NCBI GenBank assembly: GCA_964016885.1
Contig: OZ024747.1
Span: 75,764,001 to 75,828,000 of the forward strand
Direction of reading: 5' to 3'
DNA from: Eledone cirrhosa
Taxonomy: Eukaryota
Length of the DNA stretch: 64,000 bases
Of the stretch, positions 11,276 to 62,918 are shown piece after piece. Both the position numbers and the translations under genes were made by a program. The notes beneath the pieces were generated by a model, which saw only the letters and a list, made by a program, of their open reading frames with translations, ran no database searches and had not been told where the DNA came from. The first letter of the stretch is position 1. Every line of letters starts with the position of its first letter.

Positions 11276-14200
11276 AAAAAGAAAACACACCTCAGACACA
11301 CAAATGAAAACAACGCCTCCCCAAAACATAACACTGACACCAACACAAAAGAGTTCACAACAACAGCAAACAAAAAACACCACACAAAAACAAAAACATG
11401 CATACACATACATAAACACAAGAAACAAAAAACTTAAACATTGTATACAACAACAATACAATAAAAACCCAAGGACCTAACTTCACCCAGGCAGGGGATT
11501 TCCCCCACCTCAAAATGATTAAGGCCCCATTATAAAACTTTAAAAAACTACTTTAAAGAGGACGTGGGTCCCCCCTGCGTCGGGCCCATTAACCGCGTCC
11601 TTCTAAAAAACTAGCCCACCCCCTCCCAAACACCCACACAACTCCAAACACCCCAACCACACAACACACTGATGCCCCTACACTTCCACAACCCCCCCCA
11701 CCCAACAACCCATCCCCCACCCTAATGGAAATTGTGCATCCCGATACCCGGGACGCAGAGATGTAAGTGCCTTTTCTCTTCACCACCAACATGGCTATGC
11801 TAAGAGTAGGCTGTTTAAATGCGCGTGGCCTGGGCTCAACTTGGAAGCAAGCAATGCTTCTAAATGACCTCAGGTCACAATGTATAGATGTGTTGGTTAT
11901 TTGCGAGGCCCGGATCAGCAACGTGCGACAGCTGGCCCCCACCTTTGATGACTTTGAGATGCACGCATCTCGCTGTCAGCCCGGAGGTGGGGGGTGGGGT
12001 TGTCGCTCTGCTGCAAAAACATCTGGGTCTCGCAACACAGATGGTACATTTAGACCCGGAGGGTCGACTAGTGGTTCTGGACCTTGGCAGTGGTGAAGGC
12101 GGAGCGTTTAGGTTGGTAGCCGCCTACGGCCCTTTCGGGTCAATGCGGCCGGACTTCTTCCATCGTCTGGAGACTTTTCTAGGGACGTCCCGCTCCTTGC
12201 TATTAGTGGGGGACTGGAATGGTATCCTAGATGCACGTTGGGACTACGTAGGGGCCTGTCCCGATAGAGAGGGGTGTAATAGCCTCAAAAGGTTAATCGG
12301 TCGATTTGATCTGGCCGATAGATATCGACTAAATTTTCCGACTGCGCCAACCTGGACTTGGGCAAATCGTAGCGGATCATTTAGGTCGTACCTAGATAGG
12401 TTCTTAGTTAGAATTAAGGATAAGGACTTTTTAAGTTGTCCAAAAATGCGCATGGTTGGCTATTCAGACCACAAGTTAGTGACCTGCATGGTCAACCTTG
12501 ACAGAACTCATAGACAGGGACCCGATTACTGGAAGCTCAACTTGTCCTTACCGGCAAGTAAGGCTTACAGGGACCGGATTAGCACTTTAGTTAAGGAGCG
12601 GTTGACGGGTGCCATCGTCAACAGCAGGTGGTGGGGATCTCTCAAAGGAGAGATTAGAGTAGTCTCTATAGAATTTAGTAAGGAGTTAGCCTCAAATAGA
12701 AATAGGAAGGAAAGGGAGTTGGTAGATAGTATAGAAGAGGCAATTAGAAGCGGCGACGTGGCCAGAGTGCTAGCGTCGAGAACGGCCCTGGGCCAGTTCT
12801 TCGACGCGAAACACGAAGGCTGCATCGTCCGAAGCAAAATACGTGCTCTGAGAAACGAGGGGACCAAAGCTGTTAGCTGGGCCCGCGTGACAGAAGCCAA
12901 AAGAGGGAGCAGATCCACTATCCGGTCTTTGCGAGACCAGGATGGACGGGTGATCCTTGAACCTAAGCAGATGTGCGAGGCTTTTCAAAAGCACTTTGCC
13001 GGATTGTTCGGAAGGGGCGGGGAGCCGGTTGGGGATGTGGACTTCGGTCCATACCTCGACGGCCTGCCGCGTCTCTCGGACAGGGAGGTGAAGTCCTGCG
13101 AGGAGCCGATTTCAGCCGCTGAGATAGAGGATGTGCTGAGCCAATGCGGCAAACGCAAATCCCCGGGTCTCGATGGTCTTCCATACGAACTATATCTAGC
13201 TATGCCGGACTTGTTCCCCGATCTCCTCAAGGCGGTCTACTGCAACTGGCAACAGAACGGGAGAATTCCCTGTGCTCTGACCAAGGGCGTAGTCACGCTA
13301 GTGAGGAAGGACGAGAACAAGGAGGACGATATAAATCATTTCAGGCCCATAACTCTGCTAAATACAGAATTACAGATTTTGGCCAAGGTGCTAGCAAAGA
13401 GGTTGGCGCTTGTCGTGGGAAACCTGGTGGGAGATGCGCAGACATGTGCTATCCCGTCCAGGTCCATCCACGACAACCTCCACCTCATGCGATACACCAT
13501 AGAGAGGGTTGTGAACGAACCCGGCAATCTAAGGCATTCGATAGGGTCGACCATGGTTACCTGGATGCGGTGTTAGCGGTGGCAGGCTTCGGACCCCTTT
13601 TTCAGGGGCTGGGTCAATGCCATGCACAGCAGCCGCATCTGCAGTAGGGTCAAGGTGAACGGCTACCTCTCGGAGCCGTTCGAAATCGCGCGGTCCATCC
13701 GACAGGGATGCCCTCTCTCCTCCCTTCTGTATGTAATGACTCTAGAGCCACTGCTGCGGAAGTTGGAGTTGTTGCAGGGCATCCCGTTGGAACCGGGATT
13801 GCGGAAAGCGGTGTCGGCCTACGCCGACGACGTAACAGTAATGGTGTCTACGGCCTCGGAAATCGGGGCGATCGACACCTTATTGGAGGAGTACGAAAGG
13901 TTTACAGGGGCTAAGCTGAACCGGGACAAGTAGATCGGTTTGCAACTCGGCACATGGAGGGGCAGATCGATGCCCTCCGATGGCGTCGTCGGGCGCTGGA
14001 CGGAGGGCCCGGTGAAGTTGCTCGGGGTCTGGTTCGGACCAGACCTCCAGGTGGAGAAGAACTGGGGTGAGGTAACGAACAGGTGTTTGCACTGACCCAG
14101 AAGTGGGCCGAGTGCAAACTGTCCCTGAAAGGTCGGGGGAGGTGGCGAACACTTATATAGCGTCCGTCATCTACTACCGCCTGACCGTTGTGCCTTGCCC

Positions 14201-15459
14201 AAGGGAAACGCTCGCCAAAATGGAGCGCGCTCTCTTCCAATTCCTTTGGTAGAAGCGGGCTCCTATGGTGAGGAGATCCATCTGCTGTCAACACCCTTCG
14301 AAAGGAGGGCTGGGGATGCCGTGGCTAATGATACGTAAACACGCATTAAGGCTACGGCACCTCGAGGTATTCCGTCCGGTCAACCGGTGTGGGCCCCGTT
14401 TGTGAGGCGAGCCTTTCCCAGACTCGTCTCACTCACCGAGCTGCAATCCTGGGTCAAGCAAAGACCGAGAAAACTGGGCGCCTGGCACACCGAGTGTGCC
14501 CAGGCGCTCACGGTTCTCTGGCAGGCGGACCCGACTGTCAGTGGAGAATCCACCTCGTCATTCTATAGAGAGCTGGTGGTTAGCAGGTGCGACGACGCCC
14601 TCGGAGAAGCCCTAGGCATGGAGGAAGACGAACTGGCCAACCTGTTCGGTAGGACATTCAGCCCGGGACCCATGGATAACTTCCAGAGGTCCCTGGCCTG
14701 GAAGTGCTACAGAAGGGCTCTGCCCGTTCGAGAAAGGCTCTACAGACACGGGAGCCCGGGTAGGGACCCTCGAAAAAGATCTGTCCCAGATGCGTGTGCG
14801 ACGAGGAAACCGTTGCACACGCATTGGTACACTGCTCGAGCATTGCTGATCTGTGGGGCTATGTCGAACAACTGCTGTCAAGAGTGGGACCGATCCGGTT
14901 GACCACCGAGTCTATTGTAACGATCAAGCCGCCTCCCCTCTTCAAAAACGAAGGAGAGGCGGGTTTCTGTGCGTAATAGCCATGGCGAAAGAGGTTGTAT
15001 GGTGGACGCGTCAGAAAGGACTGAGGTCAGACACCTTTCTCTCTGGCCAACAACTGGTCCGTTTCTTCTGATATCATTTCGGAAGAAGGATCAGGATGGA
15101 GAGAGAGGTGCTGCACCCCAGCCGTTTTTATGAAAGATGGGTGAAAGTGGCGAGAATGGCCCGTGTGAATGGGCCTTCACTCTACATCAGACTATAGGTG
15201 AGGAAGATGAAAGACCAAGGGAGCACCCCTTCTCTGTGCTCCTGAGGAAAAGGGTTGCACACTTTTTTCGGGGGTGTGTGCGACCCCCCAAGGCGCCTCC
15301 TCTCTATTGAGGATTTTGTTATAAATTTTATTCTGTTATATTTTATTTTATTTTTATAATTTGTTATTGCCTCCTCCTTATTGAGGACGCATTGTTTTGT
15401 AAACTCCCCCCATTGTACTTGTCCCACTTTTGATGCCCTGGTGGCAAATAAAAGAAACA
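11275..15459 (+). mobile_element. Tx1-like (L1 clade) non-LTR retrotransposon, 5'-truncated, inserted in (TATC)n
   Basis: GC-rich ORF2 with APE, RT and CCHC. Flanked on both sides by (ATCT)n (11196-11274 and 15460-15540). Confidence 0.9.
11791..15197 (+). pseudogene. LINE ORF2 (AP endonuclease, reverse transcriptase, zinc knuckle), frameshifted and with stops
   Basis: Motifs CLNARGL, VGDWN, YLDRFL, SDHKLV, KSPGLDG, FRPITLLN, RQGCPLS, AYADD and ETVAHALVHC occur across several frames. Confidence 0.93.
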
Positions 15460-16183: not shown

Positions 16184-16243
<60 letters not shown>

Positions 16244-16247
<4 letters not shown>

Positions 16248-19164
16248 ATAATAATAAATTTGAAGACTAAAATCCAAAGAGGGTTCGATAAGGATAAATA
16301 TATATCAAATATATAAGAACCGTAGAGCAAATATTTATTAAAATAACAGATTAAAGTTTAAGCAAAGAATCGCTGCTTTCACCCCTAACGGGATCTTCTG
16401 AAACTAACAAAGTCAATCTGTAAACGCAGAACTGGATATTTCAAAAAACGTTGCAACCAGAGGAAGACAGGAAGACGATTGTTTGGTTCGTGGTAACGTT
16501 CGCTGGCAAAGAACGGGAAAAAACGAATATAATACGTCATTTATAGGAGCGGTGAAAAACAATTACGCGCAAAGACAGAACCACGTTTATGGTATAAAAG
16601 AGGTCGTAGACTAATGTTCTCTTAGGTGGTTCATAGAGACGTTCTCTGGCAATGAACGAAAAAAACGAATATAATACGTCATATGTGGAACGTGGAGAAC
16701 AATTGCACGCAAAGACAAAACCACGTAAATGGTATAGCAGAAGTTGTAGACTAAAATTCTAACTAGGAGACCGAATGAATCTCCGCTTTAAAGTTAAGAA
16801 TAAAGTAAATAAATACAATACAGAGGTAATAAAAATTAAATAAATACATACACGCATACAGATACGTACATACACAAGCATACGCGAAAACACTTACCAT
16901 AGGTATACAAAACCACGCACATATAAATATGTGTGTGTGTGTATGCGTGAATACAAATAAATAAATAATTAAATAAACGTATATAAATAAATAAATACGT
17001 ATATAACAGACGCACACACACACCTACATGTAAATACACAAATGTTCGGAGACGTAAGTCAACCAAAACAGGAAGTACACATATACACACACCCTACATA
17101 CGTACGAACCTGCATACTCACACAGACGCAAAACACCCGCATACACATAACCAAACCATATGTACCAGAAAATATAAAATTATACGCCATAACATACAAT
17201 CAAATATACGTACGAGAAGGTATACGTACCTTCACAAAACATACAGGTAATATATACTCACCTATGCAAATCAGTAATGGTATAAACAAAACATATACTT
17301 AGCTACCACATCAAGACGTAAAATATCCACGTATAGATCGTACTATCCGTTAGGGTATAACGTGGGGCTGTAATACAGGAAAGTTTTGTGCAATTTATGT
17401 TTACAAGCCGAAATTGCCTCAGATTTTTTGTTTAAGATGTGGTCTGTGGCGTAGAGTATTTCCAGGACCTCAGTGGCGCAGAGGTCACATGGTCTATTAT
17501 TTCCGTTATACGATCTAGCCCTAGCTAGGATCTCCCAGTGTAACTTATATTGGGTGTGGTTGTCTTTTAGACTCCAGATATAAGCTGAAAGTGACGTCAT
17601 ATTCCTTCTTAGAGGGTAACGAAAAGAATGGGTATTCATGTAAAGACGCTGCTTGAATCTATTGGCGGTTAACCCTATGTAGGCCCTACGGGACGTGGGT
17701 GTTTCAACCTTACATTTGTAGACAATGTTACTAGAGAGGCATTTCCCGGGTAGGGGGCAATCAACCCGATTCCTACAATTACAGTTAGTACTAAATACAG
17801 GGTTGCACGTGTTCCTACGGCTAAGTAGTTTAGCTAAATTTGAAGCTGTGATGTTATGTGCAAGGTTAGGAGTCGTAGAGTAAGAAATTTTAATAGTATT
17901 TCTATTAAAAATTTTACTATATTTATGTGTAGGGGGAAAATGCTTCGTAATAAGGGAAAGAAAGATTTTAGCTAATGGTGTGGCCACCTCCATATTATAT
18001 GGTGGGTTATACCAACAAATGCGACGGGATCTATTTCTTCTAGGTCTATTTTCGTACTCTGTATATGCTACCTTATCGACAAATCCACTCCGAGCAAGAG
18101 CTTCATTGTAATAAGTGGAATGGTCGTTGAAAATATGCTCGTTAGTAGATAGACGGGAAAGCCTCAACGAAACGTTTCTTACCAGGTTCTTGGTTATGCT
18201 GGCAGGATGGTTGGAATGCTTACTTATGTAATTAAGCGTATCATACGGCTTTCTATACAGGTAATACAACCCATTCAATAAATTGAGGGTAACGTCGAGG
18301 TAATTAACGACCGAAAGATTGGCCTCAACCTGTATAGAGAGGTTGAAGCCTTTAAAGAAGGCTGTGAGTTCTTTTCTGAACTTGTCACAAGCAGGTTCTT
18401 GCGTATGTAGGGTGTGTGTATATGTGTACTTCATGTTTTGGTTGACTTACGTCTCAGAACATTTGTGTATTTACATGTAGGTATGTGTGTGCGCTTGTTA
18501 TATACGTATTTATTTATTTATATACGTTTATTTAATTATTTGTATTCACGCATACACACACACACATATTTATATGTGCGTGGTTTTGTATACCTATGGT
18601 AAGTGTTTTCGCGTATGCTTGTGTATGTACGTATTTGTATGCGTGTATGTATTTATTTAATTTCTATTATCTCTGTATTGTATTTATTTACTTTGTTCTT
18701 AACTCTGAAGCGGAGATTCATTCGGTCTCCTAGTTAGAATTTTAGTCTACAACTTCTGCTATACCATTTACGTGGTTTTGTCTTTGCGTGCAATTGTTCT
18801 CCACGCTCCACATATGACGTATTATATTCGTTTTTTTCGTTCATTGCCAGAGAACGTCTCTATGAACTACCTAAGAGAACATTAGTCTACGAGCTCTTTT
18901 ATACCATAAACGTGGTTCTGTCTTTGCGCGTAATTGTTTTTCACCGCTCCTATTAATGACGTATTATATTCGTTTTTTCCCGTTCTTTGCTAGGGAACGT
19001 TTCCACGAACCAAAGTATCGTCTTCCTGTCTTCCTACGGTTGCAACGTTTTTTAAAATATCCACTTCTGCGTTTTCAGATTGACTTTGTTAGTTTCAGAA
19101 GATCCCTTTAAGGGTGAAAGCAGCGATTCTTTGCTTAAACTTTAATCTGTTATTTTAATAAATA
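16244..19164 (-). mobile_element. Penelope-like element, 5'-truncated, with an inverted terminal repeat (16331-17113 and 18391-19164)
   Basis: GIY-YIG ORF between inverted arms of about 780 bp. Both ends lie in (TA)n. Confidence 0.92.
17343..18390 (-). pseudogene. Penelope ORF C-terminal part (RT thumb, linker, GIY-YIG endonuclease)
   Basis: VNYLDVTL, SNHP, WYNPPY, CNCR...CPL, IVYKC...AYIGLT...FKQR, CDLC..E, LNKKSE. Confidence 0.92.
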
Positions 19165-35753: not shown

Positions 35754-35819
35754 TATTTTATTAAATATATTTCAAGGGCGACCAAGGTAAATTATGGTGC
35801 GCTTTCATCAGATAAAATA
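35754..35819 (-). ncRNA. Type I hammerhead, family A
   Basis: Mirror of 35927-35992 with one change in helix III. Confidence 0.7.
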
Positions 35820-35926
35820 CAGATTTGTTTTATAAATAAATATTGACATACCCGGAAAAAAGACAACCTCAACGGTTGAAATTCGCTTTTTCTGGGTAGT
35901 CAATATTTATTTATAAAACAAATCTG

Positions 35927-35992
35927 TATTTTATCTGATGAAAGCGCACCATAATTTACCTTGGTCGCCCTTGAAATATATATAATAAAATA
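35927..35992 (+). ncRNA. Type I hammerhead, family A
   Basis: tattttat-CTGATGA-stem II-GAAA-tatata-TA-ataaaata. Perfect helix I and palindrome ATATATAT. Confidence 0.8.
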
Positions 35993-43238: not shown

Positions 43239-43334
<96 letters not shown>

Positions 43335-43452
43335 GTTTGAATATGTGTAATAAGGCCAAGACAATGCAGGTATGGACATAGAAAAAAAAAAGAATACAAT
43401 AGTGAAAGATATTGATGTGAATTCGTCTTTCACCTTGAATTTATTTAAATGT

Positions 43453-43487
43453 CCTTAATTTTCGAGATAATATCTCTTCTTCGGAGG
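43453..43487 (-). ncRNA. Minimal hammerhead variant in the Penelope terminal repeat
   Basis: cct-CCGAAGA-a-gagat att atctc-GAAA-at-TA-agg. Confidence 0.5.
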
Positions 43488-43909
43488 GAAGTAAAGGTCT
43501 CAAACCAGCGTCTTTAAATCTCTAGCCAAGCCATGCTGACCGGAAATAGTATAGAGTATCTGTTCTAACTCTAACATCAAAGAATTAAAATTAGGTGGAT
43601 AAAGAGTAGTCTCCCTTTAAGAGGGGTTTGTTTAGGTTTTTTTTTATTTTTTTTTTATTTTTTTTAAATTTTAATTTTATATACGTGCCTGTATATGTGT
43701 GTGGGAGAATGCATGAAGGTGTAGGTATGTGGGTGTGTGTGTGTGAGTGTGGGAAGATAGGTCTAATCGTAAAAGTGGGGGGTAGGTGTTATCTGGTGTT
43801 AGAACTGGTTTTGTGTGTGTATGTGTGAGAGAGAATAAGTGGAGGTGTAAGCGTGTGTGTGTGTGCGTGCGTGTGTGTGGGGTGTGTAAAAATGGGGCTA
43901 GAGGCCCTA

Positions 43910-46236
43910 TCAGGTTATAAATTGGGTGTTGAGCTCTAGTCTATTATTGATTGGTGGATGTGTTCTATCTATAATAAGTGCTTCCTTAATTCTAAGATTG
44001 CCGAGGTTTCTTTCCTTAGTTTCTATCCTAACTGTTATGTTTTTATCGGTGTTTTTGCATTTAACTAGGTGTTTCTTAAATGAGGAAGCGTTAGTATTGA
44101 GGTGTTCTTTTATTCTTATGTGGAGTGGTCTGGTGGTGCTACCTACGTAGAAGTTGTTGCATTTGTCACACTCTAGTCTGTATACTACGTAAGCCTGGTG
44201 GCATAAGTCTGTGTCGTTGATGGGGCAGTTGGCTAGTCTGCAGCAGTTGTCATGTCTGGTGGAGTGTCTCTTGGCCAGCCGTCCGCGCAGAGAAGGACCC
44301 GAGTGGGCCAGTTGGATATCCAGTCCCTCTCGTCTGATGGCTCTGCGGATGGCTGTTGTTGTTTCTTCACTGAAGTGTGGGAGCTTCAGGAAGCAAGTGT
44401 TAGTGCCTCGGGTGTGGTGTCCTCTGTTCTTTCTGGCACGGTTTGTGGTGGATGTCGTGTATCCGTTCAGTTTGAGTACTTCCAGGAAATGTGTGGTGTG
44501 TGTGTCTCGGTCTCTGGCGTCGGTGCATTTGTTCTTGATACGTGCCAGTTCGTTCTTTATGTATCCGAACTTGGCACCGAGTGGGAGGGCCGATCTGAAA
44601 TGTACGAACAGGTCCCTGCTGGCGGATTTTTTATAGAAGCAGGTGTGGATATTGCCTTCCTCTGTTACCCTGAGTTGGAAGTCTAGTAGGGATAGGGATC
44701 CTCGGTCATCGGGGTGTTCCATGCTGAACTTTATACTGGCGTCCATGCTGGAGAATGTTGTGTATATTTTCTCTGCCTCCTCACGGGATGATGTAAGGAT
44801 GAGTATGTCATCTACATATCGGGTGAAGAAGGCATGGGAATGGCAGGTGTTGAGGGCTCGGCATTTTAGCTGGTTCATGTAGGTGATGGCCAGCAGGCCC
44901 GAAAGGCTGGATCCCATGGGTAATCCTGTTGTCTGTCTGTATGTGTGGTGGTGGAAGGTGAAGTACGTGTTGTCTACTGTGAAGGACAAAAGCTGGTGTA
45001 TGTCCGTCGGGTGGAGGCCGTAGCAGTGGATGTTCTCTGCGACCACGCAGTCCGTCAATAAATCGACAGCTGGGTGAGCGGGGACTGTAGTGTAGAGGGA
45101 GACAACGTCGAGGCTAAAAGCGTATTTATTTAGTTTAAGTTGTTCTGGCTGGAGTTGGTGTAATCTACGTATAACTTCGTCGGAGATACTGAGATGTCCG
45201 GGGAAGGTGGAGAGTAGAGGCTTGAGGACCTGGGAGAGAAGCCAGGAAATTTTGTATAGGAGTCCTTCTATGCTAGAGACGATGGGTCTTATTTGCGTCT
45301 TAGTGCTATTCTTGTGGGTCTTGATGAGGTGGTAGAAAGTGGGCAGTCTGCTATTTCTAGTGGTGTAGTTGAGTTTAATTTTATTCGGGAGTTGTCTTCT
45401 CCTACAGATATCGAACCAAATGGAATTGGTCTGTTTTTCGATTTGTGCTGCGGTCATGTCCGGGATCACCGTGTACAATTCACTGTCGCTTAGGTGTTCG
45501 AAGGCTAGGTTATTTTATGTGGCTTGAGAGATGACGCAGAACTCTTTACCTTTGTCGGATGGTAAGTAAATAAGTTCCTTATTCCGTAGGTTCTTCAGGG
45601 CGAGTTGTTGTGTCCTGGAGAGGTTAGGGGCCATCTTCTTCTGTTTCCGTAAGATGTTAAATACGGAATGTTTTAGTCTCGAGAGTTTTTCTTCCAGCTC
45701 GCGGTTGGCGGGCGGTGGATAGAGTGGGCGATCTAGTTGGTATATCGGGAATCTGGGTGTGGTGGATTCCGTGGTGTTGTTGTCGAGAGTCGATATCCAT
45801 TTCAGTTGGTAGGCAGTCCGACAGAAATTCGTTTCTATGTCGAGCCATAGTCTGTCGTCCAGTCTCTGTTTCAATATGAACTTGGGACCCAGGCTGAGGA
45901 GGTCTAATTCCTCTCGGGAGAGGGATCCTGTCAAGTCTGTGACGAGGTGTTTTGCGTCAGGTGTGTTGTTGGTCGGGGTGCCGCTAGGTTCGGTGTTGGT
46001 AACGTATTGTTCGCCTCTGTTGGTGTTTAGCGTTGGGATGTTGTTAAGACAGTTGGCCGTCCTGAGTTTGAGAAATGTTTGCGTTAGGCGTATTTTCTCG
46101 TAGTCTCGGCGGTGGTGGTATGACCTGTCTATAGTGGCGGAGATGACCCTGGACAGAGGTTCTGGGGTTTCAGCGAGTTGTGGTACAAGGCTGGAGATAG
46201 TCCGTATGTGATGTTGTAGCGTGCGGTGTAGGTGTT
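43910..46236 (-). pseudogene. Penelope reverse transcriptase plus GIY-YIG endonuclease with a single in-frame stop (45515-45517)
   Basis: ORFs 45515-46270 and 43910-45478 are in the same frame. Motifs LGPKF, PSDKG, KTHK...IRPIVS, SLDVVSLYT, GLPMGSSLS, RYVDD, LLDF, VVY...FYVGST...RIKEH and EALII...IN. Confidence 0.95.
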
Positions 46237-46410
46237 GTAAAAAAAAAAAAAAAAAAAAAAACCTAAACAAACCCCTCTTAAAGGGAGACTACTCTTTATC
46301 CACCTAATTTTAATTCTTTGATGTTAGAGTTAGAACAGATACTCTATACTATTTCCGGTCAGCATGGCTTGGCTAGAGATTTAAAGACGCTGGTTTGAGA
46401 CCTTTACTTC

Positions 46411-46445
46411 CCTCCGAAGAAGAGATATTATCTCGAAAATTAAAG
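46411..46445 (+). ncRNA. Minimal hammerhead variant in the inverted Penelope repeat
   Basis: cct-CCGAAGA-a-gagat att atctc-GAAA-at-TA-aag. Confidence 0.45.
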
Positions 46446-47093
46446 ACATTTAAATAAATTCAAGGTGAAAGACGAATTCACATCAATATCTTTCACTATT
46501 GCATTCTTTTTTTTTTCTATGTCCATACCTGCATTGTCTTGGCCTTATTACACATATTGAAACGTTTATACCTCATTACACAATGCTTCAAGTGAACTAT
46601 AACCTCCTCCATATATATATATGTATATATATATATGTATATATATATATACAAGTGGAAGATTAGTAAAATCGAAGCTTTGGCTACGGCCAAGCAAAGT
46701 CGACCTACAATTAGGGATGAGTAACAAAGTATTCAATATGGGTAGGTCCTTAGAGTAATAACATTACGTTTAGATAGCTTGACAAATTTAAAATTGTCAA
46801 ACATACAATACCAAAACAACGAAAAAAAGTAATCAGGTTAGACAAATAAATATGTTGCTGACATATAGCTTTGTGTGTTATTGATATCGAACACTGGCAG
46901 TTGATTGCGATGCATATATATATATATATTAATTCAAAATATTAATAAATATAGACATTCATGTGATCAAATATATTTTATTATATATATTTCAGGCGTA
47001 CTGTGCTGTTTCCCCAATACGTCCTCATCAGATAAAATAAATTGATGTCTGACATACCTCTGATGGTTCAATTCCAGTCTTGGCATATATATA

Positions 47094-57256: not shown

Positions 57257-57632
57257 AGAACAAAAGATGGTTAAAAGAGTTCCATGTATTTTATTATGCG
57301 CATTTCAAAATATATATATATATATATTTATTAACCCGCCATTGAACCACACTGGCATTTGGTTGGACAATACATGCGTACCTTGGCGCCTTGTGCGTGA
57401 AGTAACGTATTTCCTATTACTACTACCTCCACTAACGTTGAGAACAAATTTGGTCGTTCTGACTGCTGCTAGCAATAGCTGTGGCTAGTTTGACCTACCT
57501 CCTTTTGCCTCTATCTTTGCTACGGCCCTTGATAAACCTGTTCTACATCATCCACTCTCATCCCAAGAACAGTTTTGACAGCGCTAGTTTGTGATTTAAA
57601 TTCAGGAATTTTATATTCTTTGAATGAAAAGA

Positions 57633-57717
57633 ACCTTCTGACGAGAATCTTTCTTTGCAACGAAGGCTGTATGGTCTCCGTTTTATTTTTTGGGATTCGA
57701 AACCGATCGGTAAAGGT
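57633..57717 (+). ncRNA. Type I hammerhead of the 480-nt retrozyme
   Basis: acctt-CTGACGA-gaatct...gggattc-GAAA-ccgatcgg-TA-aaggt. Palindrome ACCGATCGGT, GUA site after 57712. Confidence 0.9.
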
Positions 57718-58115
57718 AACTATAGTAGGTAAAGTCAATTTTTTAAAATTTATTTTGAAACTTTTTCATTATTTACTAAACCTTGTTTATATTTGTTCTG
57801 GCTCGTTAACTTATTAACCCGCCATTGAACCACACTGGCATTTGGTTGGACAATACATGCGTACCTTGGCGCCTTGTGCGTGAAGGAACGTATTTCCTAT
57901 TACTACTACCTCCACTAACGTTGAGAACAAATTTGGTCGTTCTGACTGCTGCTAGCAATAGCTGTGGCTAGTTTGACCTACCTCCTTTTGCCTCTATCTT
58001 TGCTACGGCCCTTGATAAACCTGTTCTACATCATCCACTCTCATCCCAAGAACAGTTTTGACAGCGCTAGTTTGTGATTTAAATTCAGGAATTTTATATT
58101 CTTTGAATGAAAAGA

Positions 58116-58199
58116 ACCTTCTGACGAGAATCTTTCTTTGCAACGAAGGCCGTATGGTCTCCGCTTTATTTTTGGGATTCGAAACCGATCGGTAAAGGT
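58116..58199 (+). ncRNA. Type I hammerhead of the 480-nt retrozyme
   Basis: Same motif. Cleavage predicted after 58194. Confidence 0.9.
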
Positions 58200-58646
58200 A
58201 ACTATAGTAGGTAAAGTCAATTTTTTAAAATTTATTTTGAAACTTTTTCATTATTTACTAAACCTTGTTTATATATATATATATATATATATATTGTTAT
58301 ACTTGGGGAGGGTCATATTGTTGTAATAATATTGCCAGAAATAATAACAGAACACACTCACTGGCTGGTTAGTTTTCGCTTCTGTATCTTTTATATCTCC
58401 ACAGTTAATTCATTTGGTCTTTAATGTTTAACATTGACTAACCAACGGTCAAAAATACAGATATAATATAGATATAAACACATATATATAGTCTAACAAA
58501 GTTCTTTCGTTGCACACCTCCAACATCATAAGTGGTACTGTTATATTCCTCCTGTTGTATTGTTTGTCTACGTTATATATATATATCTCGTATATATATA
58601 TATATACGATATTAACAAATGGAAACTATATTTATAAAACCATATT

Positions 58647-58711
58647 TATTTCATTATACATATTTCAAGGATACCAAGTTAAATTATGGTATGCCTTCAT
58701 CAGACAAAATA
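58647..58711 (-). ncRNA. Type I hammerhead, family A
   Basis: Mirror of 58794-58858. Confidence 0.75.
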
Positions 58712-58793
58712 CAATATATACCAGTTTTATAAATAAACATTGACGTACCCTTTCAAAATGCAACCGTTACTTTTGGAAGACATCAGGATAGAC

Positions 58794-58858
58794 TATTTTG
58801 TCTGATGAAGGCATACCATAATTTAACTTGGTATCCTTGAAATATGTATAATGAAATA
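58794..58858 (+). ncRNA. Type I hammerhead, family A
   Basis: tattttgt-CTGATGA-agg c atacca...tggtat cctt-GAAA-tatgta-TA-atgaaata. Confidence 0.78.
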
Positions 58859-58985
58859 AATATGGTTTTATAAATATAGTTTCCATTTGTTAATATCGTA
58901 TATCTACTCCAAATACTTGTCGAGTGCTTTATATCAGTTATAAAAATATTTGCTTGTTGTATCCCAACAATTTAAATAGAACTTT

Positions 58986-59033
<48 letters not shown>

Positions 59034-59135
59034 TACACAAACATATATAAACATATATATATATATATATATATATAAAGTATTGAGTACTCTGGTGCCT
59101 TATGGTCCATCTGGTTCCTTACCACATTTCCTTTG

Positions 59136-59171
<36 letters not shown>

Positions 59172-59177
<6 letters not shown>

Positions 59178-59396
59178 TAAAATAACAGATTAAAGTTTAA
59201 ACAAAGAATCGCTGCTTCCACCCTTAACGGGATCTTAGTTTCAGAAGATCCCGTTAAGGGTGAAAGCAGCGATTCTTTGCTTAAACTTTAATCTGTTTTT
59301 TAATAAATATTTGCTCTACGGTTCTTATATATATGATATATATTTATCCTTATCGAGCCTTCTTTGGATTTTATTCTTCAAATTTATTATTATTAC

Positions 59397-59398
<2 letters not shown>
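59172..59398 (+). mobile_element. Fold-back of the 3' end of the Penelope family at 16244-19164
   Basis: Matches 16244-16405 as a reverse complement. Palindrome centred near 59240. Confidence 0.85.
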
Positions 59399-59436
<38 letters not shown>

Positions 59437-59451
59437 ATATATATATATATA

Positions 59452-59648
59452 TAGGAAAATGTTTAACCCCGACCGCAGGACTCAAGCTGTTTCGACGGCT
59501 ATTTCTGGTCCAGAAGTACCCGTTGAAACGGCTTGAGCTCTTCCGTCGGGGTTAAACATTTTCCTATTACCCACTCTACTACCCTAAGTATTGAGAACTC
59601 TGGTGCGTTATGGTCCATCTGGTTCCTTACCACACCTCCTTCGTTATA
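59452..59648 (+). mobile_element. Fold-back element, family B
   Basis: Imperfect inverted repeat 59452-59567 centred on ctggtccag. Confidence 0.75.
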
Positions 59649-59654
59649 TATATG

Positions 59655-59720
<66 letters not shown>

Positions 59721-59755
59721 ATATAAGATCAAAAGATGGTTCAAAGAGTTCCAAG

Positions 59756-59826
59756 TATTTTATTATGCGCATTTCAAAAACAAATATCATCATGAGATGA
59801 TATCTGCGTTTTCATCAGATAAAATA
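59756..59826 (-). ncRNA. Type I hammerhead
   Basis: tattttat-CTGATGA-aaa c gcagatatcatc tcat gatgatatttgt ttt t-GAAA-tgcgca-TA-ataaaata. Palindrome ATGCGCAT. The 3' half is also present at about 57277-57310. Confidence 0.85.
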
Positions 59827-59881
59827 GGGATACATGATATGTAGGTTAAAAAACACTTGTGAATAGTGAAATTTTAAATCA

Positions 59882-59967
<86 letters not shown>

Positions 59968-60011
59968 CATAATTTGAACTCGGGAATTTTATATTCTCCG
60001 AGTGAAAAGAT

Positions 60012-60093
60012 CCTTCTGACGAGAACTTTTCTTTGCAATGGATGCCGTAAGGACTCCATTTATTTTTGAAACTCGAAACCGATTCGGTAAAGG
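60012..60093 (+). ncRNA. Type I hammerhead of the 480-nt retrozyme
   Basis: cctt-CTGACGA-...ctc-GAAA-ccgattcgg-TA-aagg. Confidence 0.82.
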
Positions 60094-60489
60094 TAACCAT
60101 AGTGAGTAAAGTTAATTTTTAAATTTATTTTGAAACTTTTTCTTATTTGCTAAACCTTGATTATATATGTTCTGGCTCGTTAATTTATTAACCTGCCATT
60201 GAACCACATTGGCATATGGTTGGACAATACATGTGTCCCTACGCGCTTTGTGCGTGTAGGGATATATACTTTATTATTATTCTCCTCTTAGTCGAGAAAA
60301 AATTTGGTCGTTCTGACTGCTGCTAGTTATAGTGGTAGTAGACTGACCTCCCTGCCTTTGCTTCTATCTTTACACACGGCACTTGAAGGAATTGCTCCCA
60401 CATCATTTACTCTCATCTCGGGAACAATTTTGAATAGCGCCAGTTCGTAATTTGAACTCGGGAATTTTATATTCTCCGAGTGAAAAGAT

Positions 60490-60573
60490 CCTTCTGACGA
60501 GAGTTTTTCTTTGCAATGGATGCCGTAAGGACTGTCCATTTATTTTTGAAACTCGAACCCGATTCGGTAAAGG
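60490..60573 (+). ncRNA. Type I hammerhead of the 480-nt retrozyme (GAAA changed to GAAC)
   Basis: cctt-CTGACGA-gagttt...aaactc-GAAC-ccgattcgg-TA-aagg. Confidence 0.72.
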
Positions 60574-60641
60574 TAACCATAGTGAGTAAAGTTAATTTTT
60601 TAAAATTTATTTTGAAACTTTTTATTATTTGCTAAACCTTG

Positions 60642-60722
<81 letters not shown>

Positions 60723-61127: not shown

Positions 61128-61560
61128 CTCTTTCTCTTAATTTCGAGTATATTTTTTTGACCGGCCACCTTCCTGGTGGCAAGGTTGTAAAAGAAAAGAA
61201 ATTGTCATCCCTTGAATCGCAAGAATGTTTTGCAAATTTTGAATGTGCCAGCTATCGCAGCCATTTGTAGACTATGAATTAGGGAGCTGCGCTTTTTGTC
61301 CGCAAATCCAAGTTCAGTCATACTTTGGTCTAAGCGGCTTGGTATATAACCCGTAGCTCCAATAATGATGGGTATGAAGCTAAAGGTGTATCTTGGATAC
61401 TGGATTTGTAAACTCCTCATCAATGGTCCGTAGATGTCCTCCTTCTCCTGTATTTTTCTGACAACGTTTACATCAAGTGGGCAGCTGATCTCCACAACAG
61501 AACACGTTTTCAATGTGTGGTACAGCAATATCAGGCCGATTGTGCTTTAATTTGGTGGCA
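61128..61560 (-). mobile_element. R4/Dong-like RLE non-LTR retrotransposon 3' fragment (family 1) in (CATA)n
   Basis: KHNRPDI...VVEISCP...K..Y...PIIIGATG...AGTFKICKTFL followed by a short 3' UTR. Confidence 0.85.
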
Positions 61561-61666
61561 TGAATGTATCTATGTATGTATATATGTATATATGTATATA
61601 TGTATGCATGTATGTATGTATGTATGTATGTATGTATGTATGTATGTATGTATGTATGTATGTATG

Positions 61667-62701
61667 TTCTTCTGGTTTTATAATTTCACAAATTTTTTAC
61701 CAATAGAGAGAGAGTCGGTTTCTAACATAGACACAAGACACTCTCATTGGAATTTTCACATAGTATCAACTAGGTGGATTATGTATGCATGCATGCATGT
61801 TTAGTTATGGATGTTATTGTATGTGTGGATGTGGATGTTTTGAGTTTTATGTGTGCATGTGTATATGCTTTGTATCTGAAGATGTGTATATACAGTTATT
61901 AGATGCAACATTTTTGGAATGTTTTACATAGTTTTACTGTTCCATTAATTGATTGTACTTGTAATTTCCTAACTAGTTGTGTTCTTTCTGTTCATGTGAA
62001 GCCCAGCTTCTCAAGATTTGTATTGAGGCAGTTACTAACATACCCCAGTGCCCCAATAATTACAGGCATAAATCTGAAGGTGTAATCAGGGTGGAGTATC
62101 TGCAGATTTCTCATCAGTTCTGCATAAATATTCTCCTTTTCGTTAATCTTTGATATTATATTGGCATCTGCTGGGCAGCTAATTTCCACTACTGTGCATG
62201 CTTTCTTCTCCCTGTCCCATATCATAATATCTGGTCTGTTATGCCTGCATTTTATTGGGGATTTTACTGGAACATTCCACCAGTACTCTTTCATATTATG
62301 TACATTGATGTCTTTCACATTGTTGTAGCTTTTAATGTGTTTATTATCGGGTCTATCTTTTTTACGAACTGCATTGTACAGTGTTTTGGCCACGACATCA
62401 TGGCTCATAGGTAGATAGTACCGCGATGACATCTTTGGACAGCTGCTGATGAAATGGGTGATATCCTCGATGTTAGTTCTGCAGAGTCTCATATCTAGAT
62501 GTTTTGTCTGCATCCCTATGTCTTTTGTGAATCAGGTATTTCGTGTTAATCACCTGTTCTTGGATTGCAAAAGCGTATCCTTCAAAGTGGGAGCCAATAC
62601 AGCGGTTGTTGGTCCAAGGTAGACTACTTTCCTTATCTATATTACTCTCACTCTGGAGCTTCCTGGCAACATATCCATGCATGATTTTTTGCTGATAATA
62701 T
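61667..62701 (-). mobile_element. R4/Dong-like RLE non-LTR retrotransposon 3' fragment (family 2), frameshifted
   Basis: FEGYAFAIQEQVINTKY, RLC...EDITHFISSCP (CCHC), HDVVAK, HNRPDIMIWD, VVEISCP and PVIIGALG. Confidence 0.9.
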
Positions 62702-62918
62702 CTCTTTCTCTTAATTTCGAGTATATTTTTGACCTGCCACCGTCCTGGTAGCAAGGTTGTAAAAGAAAAGAAATTGTCATCCCTTGAATCGCAAGAATGT
62801 TTTGCAAATTTTGAAAGTGCCAGCTATCGCAGCCATTTGTAGACTATGAATTACGGAGCTGTGCTCGTTGTCTGCAAATCCAAGTTTAGTTATACATTGG
62901 TCCAAGCGGGTTGGACCA
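62702..62918 (-). mobile_element. R4/Dong-like family 1 3' fragment fused to family 2
   Basis: Highly similar to 61128-61340. Confidence 0.85.

Follow-up and report, generated by a model that had tools for sequence, protein, structure and literature searches.

A hammerhead-bearing tandem repeat of Eledone cirrhosa with the insertion footprint of Penelope-like elements

How do short non-coding repeats that carry a ribozyme motif come to lie as head-to-tail arrays between (TA)n tracts? The question is raised by a 64,000-nucleotide (nt) stretch of the genome of the octopus Eledone cirrhosa (contig OZ024747.1, positions 75,764,001 to 75,828,000; hereafter the window), which contains two such arrays, A and B, of a unit of about 480 nt. 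We compared them with their relatives across the genome and conclude that the repeat is very probably an animal non-long terminal repeat (non-LTR) retrozyme, that is, a non-autonomous element retrotransposed in trans by Penelope-type machinery. We also favor, on balance, a fuller account in which the template is a putative RNA circle.

Array A spans 57328 to ~58273 and holds two units with a period of 483 nt, which are 99.1% identical over 465 nt; its top genome copies match it at 97–99% identity. Array B, with a period of ~480 nt, is 80–82% identical to A. Both sides of each array consist of (TA)n, at 57310–57327 and 58270–58293 for A and at 59895–59965 and 60644–60713 for B. The longest ATG-started frame is 48 amino acids (aa) in A and 70 aa in B, and there is no protein coding capacity, so that the original prediction of two (TA)n-flanked arrays without an open reading frame (ORF) was borne out. 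A tree of 104 distinct near-full units forms a ladder of subfamilies, as would be expected for a retroposon with successive source copies. A and B sit on different branches of this tree and are therefore separate insertions.

To place the arrays within their family, we searched the 3.0 Gb genome for exact matches to the hammerhead pattern (1,907), to the post-cleavage motif (2,589) and to reversed-pattern controls (0). The repeat is present at well over a thousand genomic places. We fetched 130 loci, comprising the 60 best DNA matches and 70 taken in chromosome order from the pattern list, and kept 121 distinct insertions after removing duplicates, clusters shorter than 100 nt and insertions cut by a locus edge. 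The best-match set is biased toward long, young copies and the chromosome-ordered set toward copies with an intact hammerhead. As predicted, inserts longer than one unit are common: an arm exceeds one unit in 82 of the 121 insertions (32/66 in the position-ordered sample), and arrays of three to nine units exist (L124, L136 and L157). The nine-unit array (L136:2045-6485) shows 3 substitutions in 3,782 compared nt and also has a short inverted arm of the same haplotype.

We then examined where the insertions end. The outer 3’ ends (n = 163) fall at two sites: 109 at unit position ~465, which we call S1, and 47 at positions 75–98 of the next unit, mostly 90–92, which we call S2, leaving 7 elsewhere. 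S1 and S2 lie ~80 and ~190 nt past the predicted hammerhead cut and hence ~110 nt apart, and TA adjoins 155 of the 163 ends. The single end point that had been read from the two arrays is thus correct for A and B, and genome-wide it gives way to two fixed ends. The 5’ ends, on the other hand, are scattered among the 121 insertions. The differing starts of A and B are therefore ordinary 5’ truncations, and their earlier description as a circular permutation of the unit was wrong. Target-site duplications are unreadable within (TA)n. Only 4–8 nt of TA-like sequence is present at the ends, which argues against the earlier suggestion that priming occurs by annealing of an internal TA tract to the target; in Frangieh et al., 2024 (PMC11167929), likewise, the RNA start sites of a Penelope-like element lack homology with the cut DNA.

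Head-to-head inversions, with both 3’ ends facing outward, make up 42 of the 121 insertions. Among the 38 that could be scored, each end lying at S1 or S2, 35 pair S1 with S2, three pair S1 with S1 and none pairs S2 with S2 (18.9 mixed pairs expected, P = 2.7e-8), and within the position-ordered subset the S1+S2 pairing holds in 18 of 19. These inversions, the resulting one-sided ‘tail’ and the (TA)n targets back the proposed mobilization by Penelope-like elements. Snap-back self-copying was considered as a source of the inversions and rejected, as the 5’ ends of the two arms are not mirrored. The arms differ by fewer than two inherited differences in 34 of 39 inversions, so that we rejected a separate RNA for each arm as the general pattern, and the same low count separates the units in 59 of 67 tandems. 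Rare variants are common to arms or units in L028, L137 and L150, and tandem units show no recurring ordered differences beyond homopolymer noise and pairs of loci. A shared haplotype is what would remain after a single circular template had been read from two starting sites, but uniform arrays acting as sources would leave the same trace.

Next, we asked whether the ribozyme motif is intact. Hammerheads were called with a purpose-built descriptor consisting of helix I, CUGACGA, a long helix II, GAAA, a short helix III and GUA. This confirmed one type I motif per unit, with cores at 57638 and 58121 in A (A1 and A2) and at 60016 and 60494 in B (B1 and B2); both B motifs are damaged, however. 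GAAC at 60558 breaks the conserved A15.1–U16.1 pair of B2 and a helix II mismatch lies at 60025 in B1, therefore neither B hammerhead is intact, and B2 in particular is likely inactive judging from its core. Array A thus contains two intact motifs, the criterion used by Li et al., 2026 (bioRxiv 10.64898/2026.07.22.740005), and array B does not. The predicted cuts after 57712 and 58194 yield the 482-nt monomer that had been proposed, and those in B fall after 60089 and 60569. Natural cut-to-cut monomers across the family are 471–487 nt long, with 483 nt in 28 of 51. The Rfam search that the original prediction proposed gave no hammerhead match in a scan of the window, neither at the gathering score nor at E ≤ 10, probably because of the ~55-nt helix II. 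With that helix II and a helix I of 4–5 bp, the motif departs from the canonical geometry (Hammerhead_1, with its loop 1–loop 2 contact). We read this as variation rather than exclusion, since the class accepts variants without the usual contacts, as in mussel (Cervera and de la Pena, 2020; PMC7229834). Eleven family copies, most of which keep the helix base, have internal deletions in the long helix II (L193, L194, L197, L200-L202, L206, L210, L211, L213 and L214), possibly left by reverse transcriptase (RT) skipping over the folded hairpin.

The wider RNA fold also appears to have been maintained. A 52-pair structure evaluated in 30 chosen units has 95.7% of its cells paired, and both sides have changed in 8 of the 52 pairs, a value that none of 500 shuffles equaled. 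The clearest compensatory changes are in helix II, its extension and the upstream hairpin. The helix II and upstream hairpin sequences quoted in the original prediction were located, and its view that the arrays have diverged while keeping their structure holds. We conclude from these substitution patterns that the RNA structure is under selection. Circular folding gave z-scores of -2.6 for A and -5.7 for B, but the minus strand of B also scored -5.3 (40 shuffles, with input sequences that were too long by one base). RNAalifold predicted an internal strand whose pairing with the cut site could block the ribozyme; in folded circles this pairing reached P > 0.5 in just 5 of 22.

To see if insertions carry a trace of cleavage, we used chromosome-ordered lists of copies containing the 19 nt after the cut, which gave 167 distinct places. 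Ten of these have their 5’ end at unit positions 382–386, the predicted cut, compared with 0 of 100 within 16 nt of a control site (Fisher P = 0.008). Of the remainder, one starts at ~374 and one has an internal deletion, while ~93% of the copies cross the cut site without a scar (94 of the first 100 being seamless). The excess suggests that a small share of templates had a 5’ end at the cut and that cleavage takes place in vivo; the scarless crossing in the great majority means that a ligated or an uncut template is needed. Public sequencing runs, four rows from one study with no kind given, included none marked as RNA, which carries no information on expression.

Based on these data, we propose the following route. 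A tandem copy would be transcribed, and its hammerheads would cut the transcript to unit length, as the excess of 5’ ends at the predicted cut suggests. By analogy to other retrozymes, a host RtcB-type ligase could then close the monomer into a circle. At a (TA)n tract, a Penelope protein would introduce a nick into each strand and start reverse transcription at two internal RNA sites, S1 and S2, one per strand; the ends and their pairing are seen in the insertions, and the biochemistry is what we infer from them. Copying then extends back by differing amounts, in many cases beyond a full unit and through the cut site with no seam. Retention of one cDNA would give a simple partial tandem like A or B, and retention of both would give a head-to-head insertion with a tail at one end, both of which are architectures observed in the family. 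In its most specific form, a dimer of a Hydra-clade RT-endonuclease, acting on one self-cleaved and re-ligated ~483-nt circle, would nick both (TA)n strands and prime each at a different fixed site of the same RNA. We offer this last version tentatively, and it may well prove wrong in some part.

The candidate partners are Penelope-like elements of the same genome. Hydra-1, the family of the copy at 16240-19163 (L093-L122), is very abundant and young, with a unit of ~3,243 nt and 87,875 first-look candidates. It has intact 713-aa ORFs with a CxCX5C linker, no CCHH and an RWR motif, and it ends in (TA)n; Pfam did not recognize the ORF, and assignment to the Hydra clade rests on motifs in Craig et al., 2021 (PMC8557442). 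Its hammerhead-like motif has CAGAAGA instead of CUGANGA and U at the cut position. The two ends of Hydra-1 are located 29 and 117 nt beyond the hammerhead-like cut of this family, and both ends are paired in 12 of 12 inverted rows (11 distinct insertions). Other hammerhead-bearing ends show pairing of the S1+S2 type in four of five scorable inversions. Tail lengths are ~110 nt for the repeat, 88 nt for Hydra-1, ~66–93 nt for the other hammerhead ends and 44 nt for a Poseidon-type copy in the window, which places the repeat nearer the Hydra range than the Poseidon copy. The pLTR (pseudo-LTR) of that Poseidon copy contains no hammerhead detectable by our descriptor. Since the repeat shares no sequence with the sampled autonomous elements, the partner is named from behavior only; we think it rather likely that the mobilizer comes from the Hydra clade and not from another.

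Three further observations concern the Hydra families. In basal subfamilies of the repeat, a 12-nt AT-rich word at S2 (window region 57897-57909) is identical to the Hydra-1 S2 end (L100), and the 7 nt after S1 are alike in the two; such short words are of low complexity and may match by chance. At L052:2205-2350, a decayed Hydra-3 3’ untranslated region (UTR) is joined directly to a unit, which may reflect a template switch between two RNAs or a later deletion. We rejected this junction as proof that the unit is the Hydra-3 pLTR, as three other Hydra-3 copies continue into different sequence there.

A number of results weigh against the account given above. In vitro cleavage was seen in just one of nine predicted Xenopus retrozymes (Li et al., 2026), and uncleaved RNA was the main Penelope substrate in vitro (Frangieh et al., 2024). 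Here, helix I reached P > 0.5 in 0 of 22 folded circles, and the active fold costs a median of 5.7 kcal/mol (calculated without tertiary contacts). The compensatory changes represent few events inherited along the tree, and counts of this kind are inflated by relatedness; the number of ‘further pair types’ was no higher than in shuffles (413/500). The accumulation of 5’ ends at the cut could come from RT stalling at the folded ribozyme, and three of those ends carry one base beyond a clean cut. Arms of the same haplotype could reflect one dominant source locus at a time, and in L013 an arm switches haplotype, with a one-monomer stretch of the other haplotype ending exactly at the cut. As to the partner, no autonomous element with the unit sequence was found in Hydra-1, -2 and -3 (30 loci each), in the window Poseidon copy or by a short-helix-II pattern search (31 matches, 12 of them this family with helix II deletions and the rest other families or chance), and Poseidon in this genome also ends in (TA)n.

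One alternative is that Penelope-driven retroposition uses an uncleaved linear multimer transcribed from longer arrays, with the hammerhead cutting a minority of transcripts and no circle being formed. Hammerhead mutations leave insertion unaffected in vitro (Frangieh et al., 2024), the three- to nine-unit arrays could act as sources, the active fold is disfavored in silico and ~93% of copies are seamless at the cut. Truncation would, however, shorten arrays at every generation unless tandems were regenerated, and pairs of arms that total up to ~4 units (in L153, 467 + 1382 nt with 0 differences over 467 nt) would call for sources that are both long and uniform. Circles have moreover been demonstrated for coral, mussel and axolotl retrozymes (Cervera and de la Pena, 2020), and we regard a purely linear multimer as unlikely. 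A second linear scheme keeps the cleavage: RT reaching the cut 5’ end of a monomer would jump to a 3’ end, either that of the monomer just copied or that of a different one, and build tandems without a covalent circle. The 5’ ends at the cut agree with it, as does L013, where the stretch of other haplotype is one monomer long and the switch interval contains the cut site. That interval is 189 nt wide, though, haplotype switches are rare, and template jumps usually leave extra or missing bases, whereas 94 of the first 100 copies are seamless. Monomer jumping as the general route is accordingly improbable to us.

The two remaining explanations concern what the unit is rather than how it is copied. 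It might be the pLTR of an autonomous Penelope element yet to be found, with the arrays as truncated remnants. The insertion architecture is identical to that of autonomous Hydra-1, the hammerhead resembles pLTR-type motifs in that its helix I is short and its helix II long (Cervera and de la Pena, 2014), and the L052 junction links a Hydra 3’ UTR to a unit. Against this, unit succeeds unit up to nine times, L052 is the only one of the 121 insertions joined to a Penelope ORF (screened with one Hydra and two Poseidon protein queries), and three other copies of its Hydra family continue differently at that point. The arrays are thus not merely tandem pLTRs, for which the original prediction expected copies always to abut such an ORF. 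Descent of the unit from a pLTR is possible; that it is one now is unlikely, and we give little weight to the idea that the arrays are remnants of such an element. Finally, a few long, near-identical arrays such as L136 might be taken to indicate a satellite spread by recombination or DNA rolling-circle amplification, in which the hammerhead-like motif is incidental. Fixed 3’ ends, 5’ truncation, S1+S2 inversions and a strand-specific RNA structure with covariation already contradict this, and we find it scarcely credible. We therefore retain a Penelope-mobilized retrozyme, with a probable circular intermediate, as the best explanation.

Table 1. Coordinates within the window of the repeat, its predicted RNA features and the Penelope-like copies discussed.
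Feature	Coordinates	Strand	Basis
Insertion A: member of the young subfamily with 1.96 units of 483 nt, 5’-truncated, 3’ end at S1	57328..58273	+	sequence
(TA)n target into which the S1 end of A runs	58270..58293	.	sequence
S2, the other fixed 3’ end of the family (unit position 90-95); A continues past it	57900..57905	+	47/163 outer 3’ ends
Hammerhead A1, type I, core 57638-57644 and 57699-57702 intact, long helix II, predicted cut after 57712	57633..57717	+	
Hammerhead A2, core intact, predicted cut after 58194	58116..58199	+	
Predicted 482-nt cut-to-cut monomer, candidate circle	57713..58194	+	sequence
Hairpin upstream of hammerhead, compensatory changes between subfamilies	57600..57625	+	helix 2: both sides changed in 3/9 pairs
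Hairpin just upstream of S2, inside the ‘tail’	57857..57893	+	helix 1: 97.8% paired
Long hairpin between cut site and S1	58205..58260	+	helix 8: 99.6% of cells paired, changes one-sided only
Insertion B: 1.4 units, period ~480, older subfamily, 5’-truncated, 3’ end at S1	59966..60647 (end approximate)	+	sequence, tree
Hammerhead B1, mismatch at third pair of helix II (60025)	60011..60094	+	
Hammerhead B2, core GAAA changed to GAAC at 60558	60489..60574	+	
Truncated and inverted member of an autonomous Penelope-like family of the Hydra clade (candidate mobilizer type), S1 at one end and S2 at the other	16240..19163	.	
Penelope copy of the Poseidon type with RVT_1 and GIY-YIG, a stop interrupting its ORF, inverted 5’ pLTR with 44-nt tail, (TA)n at both ends	43330-46611		

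The window contains other traces of retroelements (Table 1 lists the main ones). Short head-to-head pairs of Penelope 3’ ends lie between TA tracts at 58590-58980, 59170-59410 and 59455-59563, and the first of these also uses its two different end sites. The top Rfam matches were to miRNA models, which we consider spurious because such pairs form perfect hairpins. Further minimal hammerhead motifs with a palindromic helix III, belonging to several other Penelope-type families, are found at 116, 35811-35935, 47031, 53771 and 59818. A frameshifted long interspersed element (LINE) with apurinic/apyrimidinic (AP) endonuclease and RT domains occupies 11767-14900 (weak Pfam matches), and fragments at 61205-62900, which have no Pfam match, resemble a LINE of the restriction-like-endonuclease kind.

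For animal retrozymes, the case for how they reach new sites has so far relied on co-occurrence and on homology to pLTRs rather than on the structure of insertions. Earlier publications already cover the retrozyme class, its link to Penelope, the one-sided tail and units as large as these, and the repeat is a member of that described class with unusually clear traces of movement: it shows the full Penelope footprint together with more 5’ ends than expected at the predicted ribozyme cut. The pairing of S1 with S2, which is nearly strict, is relevant to an open question about Penelope, namely the origin of its tandem and inverted ends and its tail, and this genomic footprint of two-site, two-strand priming is the part most worth following. 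If one circle is indeed primed at two fixed sites, a single rule would account for three features of all Penelope-like elements (pLTR, inverted copy and one-sided tail), and a short non-coding substrate would become available for testing that rule. That one genome offers both a predicted RNA of 483 nt and intact Hydra ORFs makes the question testable.

Compared with known systems, the repeat is closest to the animal non-LTR retrozymes, with which it shares few-hundred-nt non-coding tandem units of low GC content, one type I hammerhead per unit, dispersal as monomers to multimers and co-occurrence with Penelope-like elements; no LTR, primer-binding site or polypurine tract was seen in it. The cricket pDo500 family is reportedly of similar size, ~500 bp. 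The original prediction considered the monomer large for an animal retrozyme. It does exceed the circles of 170–400 nt in Cervera and de la Pena, 2020, where Penelope elements are proposed as carriers, but it falls inside the 51–972 bp of Li et al., 2026, so its size is not unusual. The long helix II and short helix I found here differ from the canonical 6/4-bp motif with its loop–loop contact. Li et al., 2026 tie retrozymes to pLTRs, with 24 of 57 Xenopus families matching known elements, nearly all Penelope-like; the repeat, unlike these, shows no sequence link to a pLTR among the sampled Hydra families and the Poseidon copy. The four invertebrates sampled in that study were three insects and a coral, and neither in its accessible text nor in that of Cervera and de la Pena, 2020 is there a report of start sites at fixed positions, of inverted insertions or of 5’ ends that coincide with the cut. 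Our literature search for hammerheads or retrozymes in octopus or cephalopods, which left most subscription journals, Repbase and Dfam outside, returned only Craig et al., 2021, a review and unrelated papers.

The behavior of the insertions is that of Penelope-like elements. In Craig et al., 2021, such elements are truncated, form partial tandems, carry an inverted 5’ copy and have a tail that is often one-ended, and (TA)n targets are given for the Hydra clade. The repeat shares all of these with Hydra-clade elements, including a tail at one end only and a hammerhead near the 3’ end, and differs from them in having no ORF, no detectable sequence similarity to the sampled Hydra families and a tail of ~110 nt instead of the 30–40 nt described. 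MRC1 and other non-autonomous Chlamys elements from the same paper are likewise non-autonomous, of Penelope type and inserted as multicopy head-to-tail arrays; unlike the repeat, they share 3’ sequence with their partner and mostly lack hammerheads. Poseidon of Anolis (PAc), as described in Frangieh et al., 2024, provides a biochemical parallel. PAc has two internal RT start sites downstream of a hammerhead that is not needed in vitro, and these sites define its tail. Both target strands are cut and extended, and a dimer is predicted, in common with the two-strand priming that we infer for the repeat. In vitro, PAc starts at the same sites on both strands and at RNA without homology to its target; in the repeat, by contrast, the two arms almost always begin at different sites, and their ends merge with TA.

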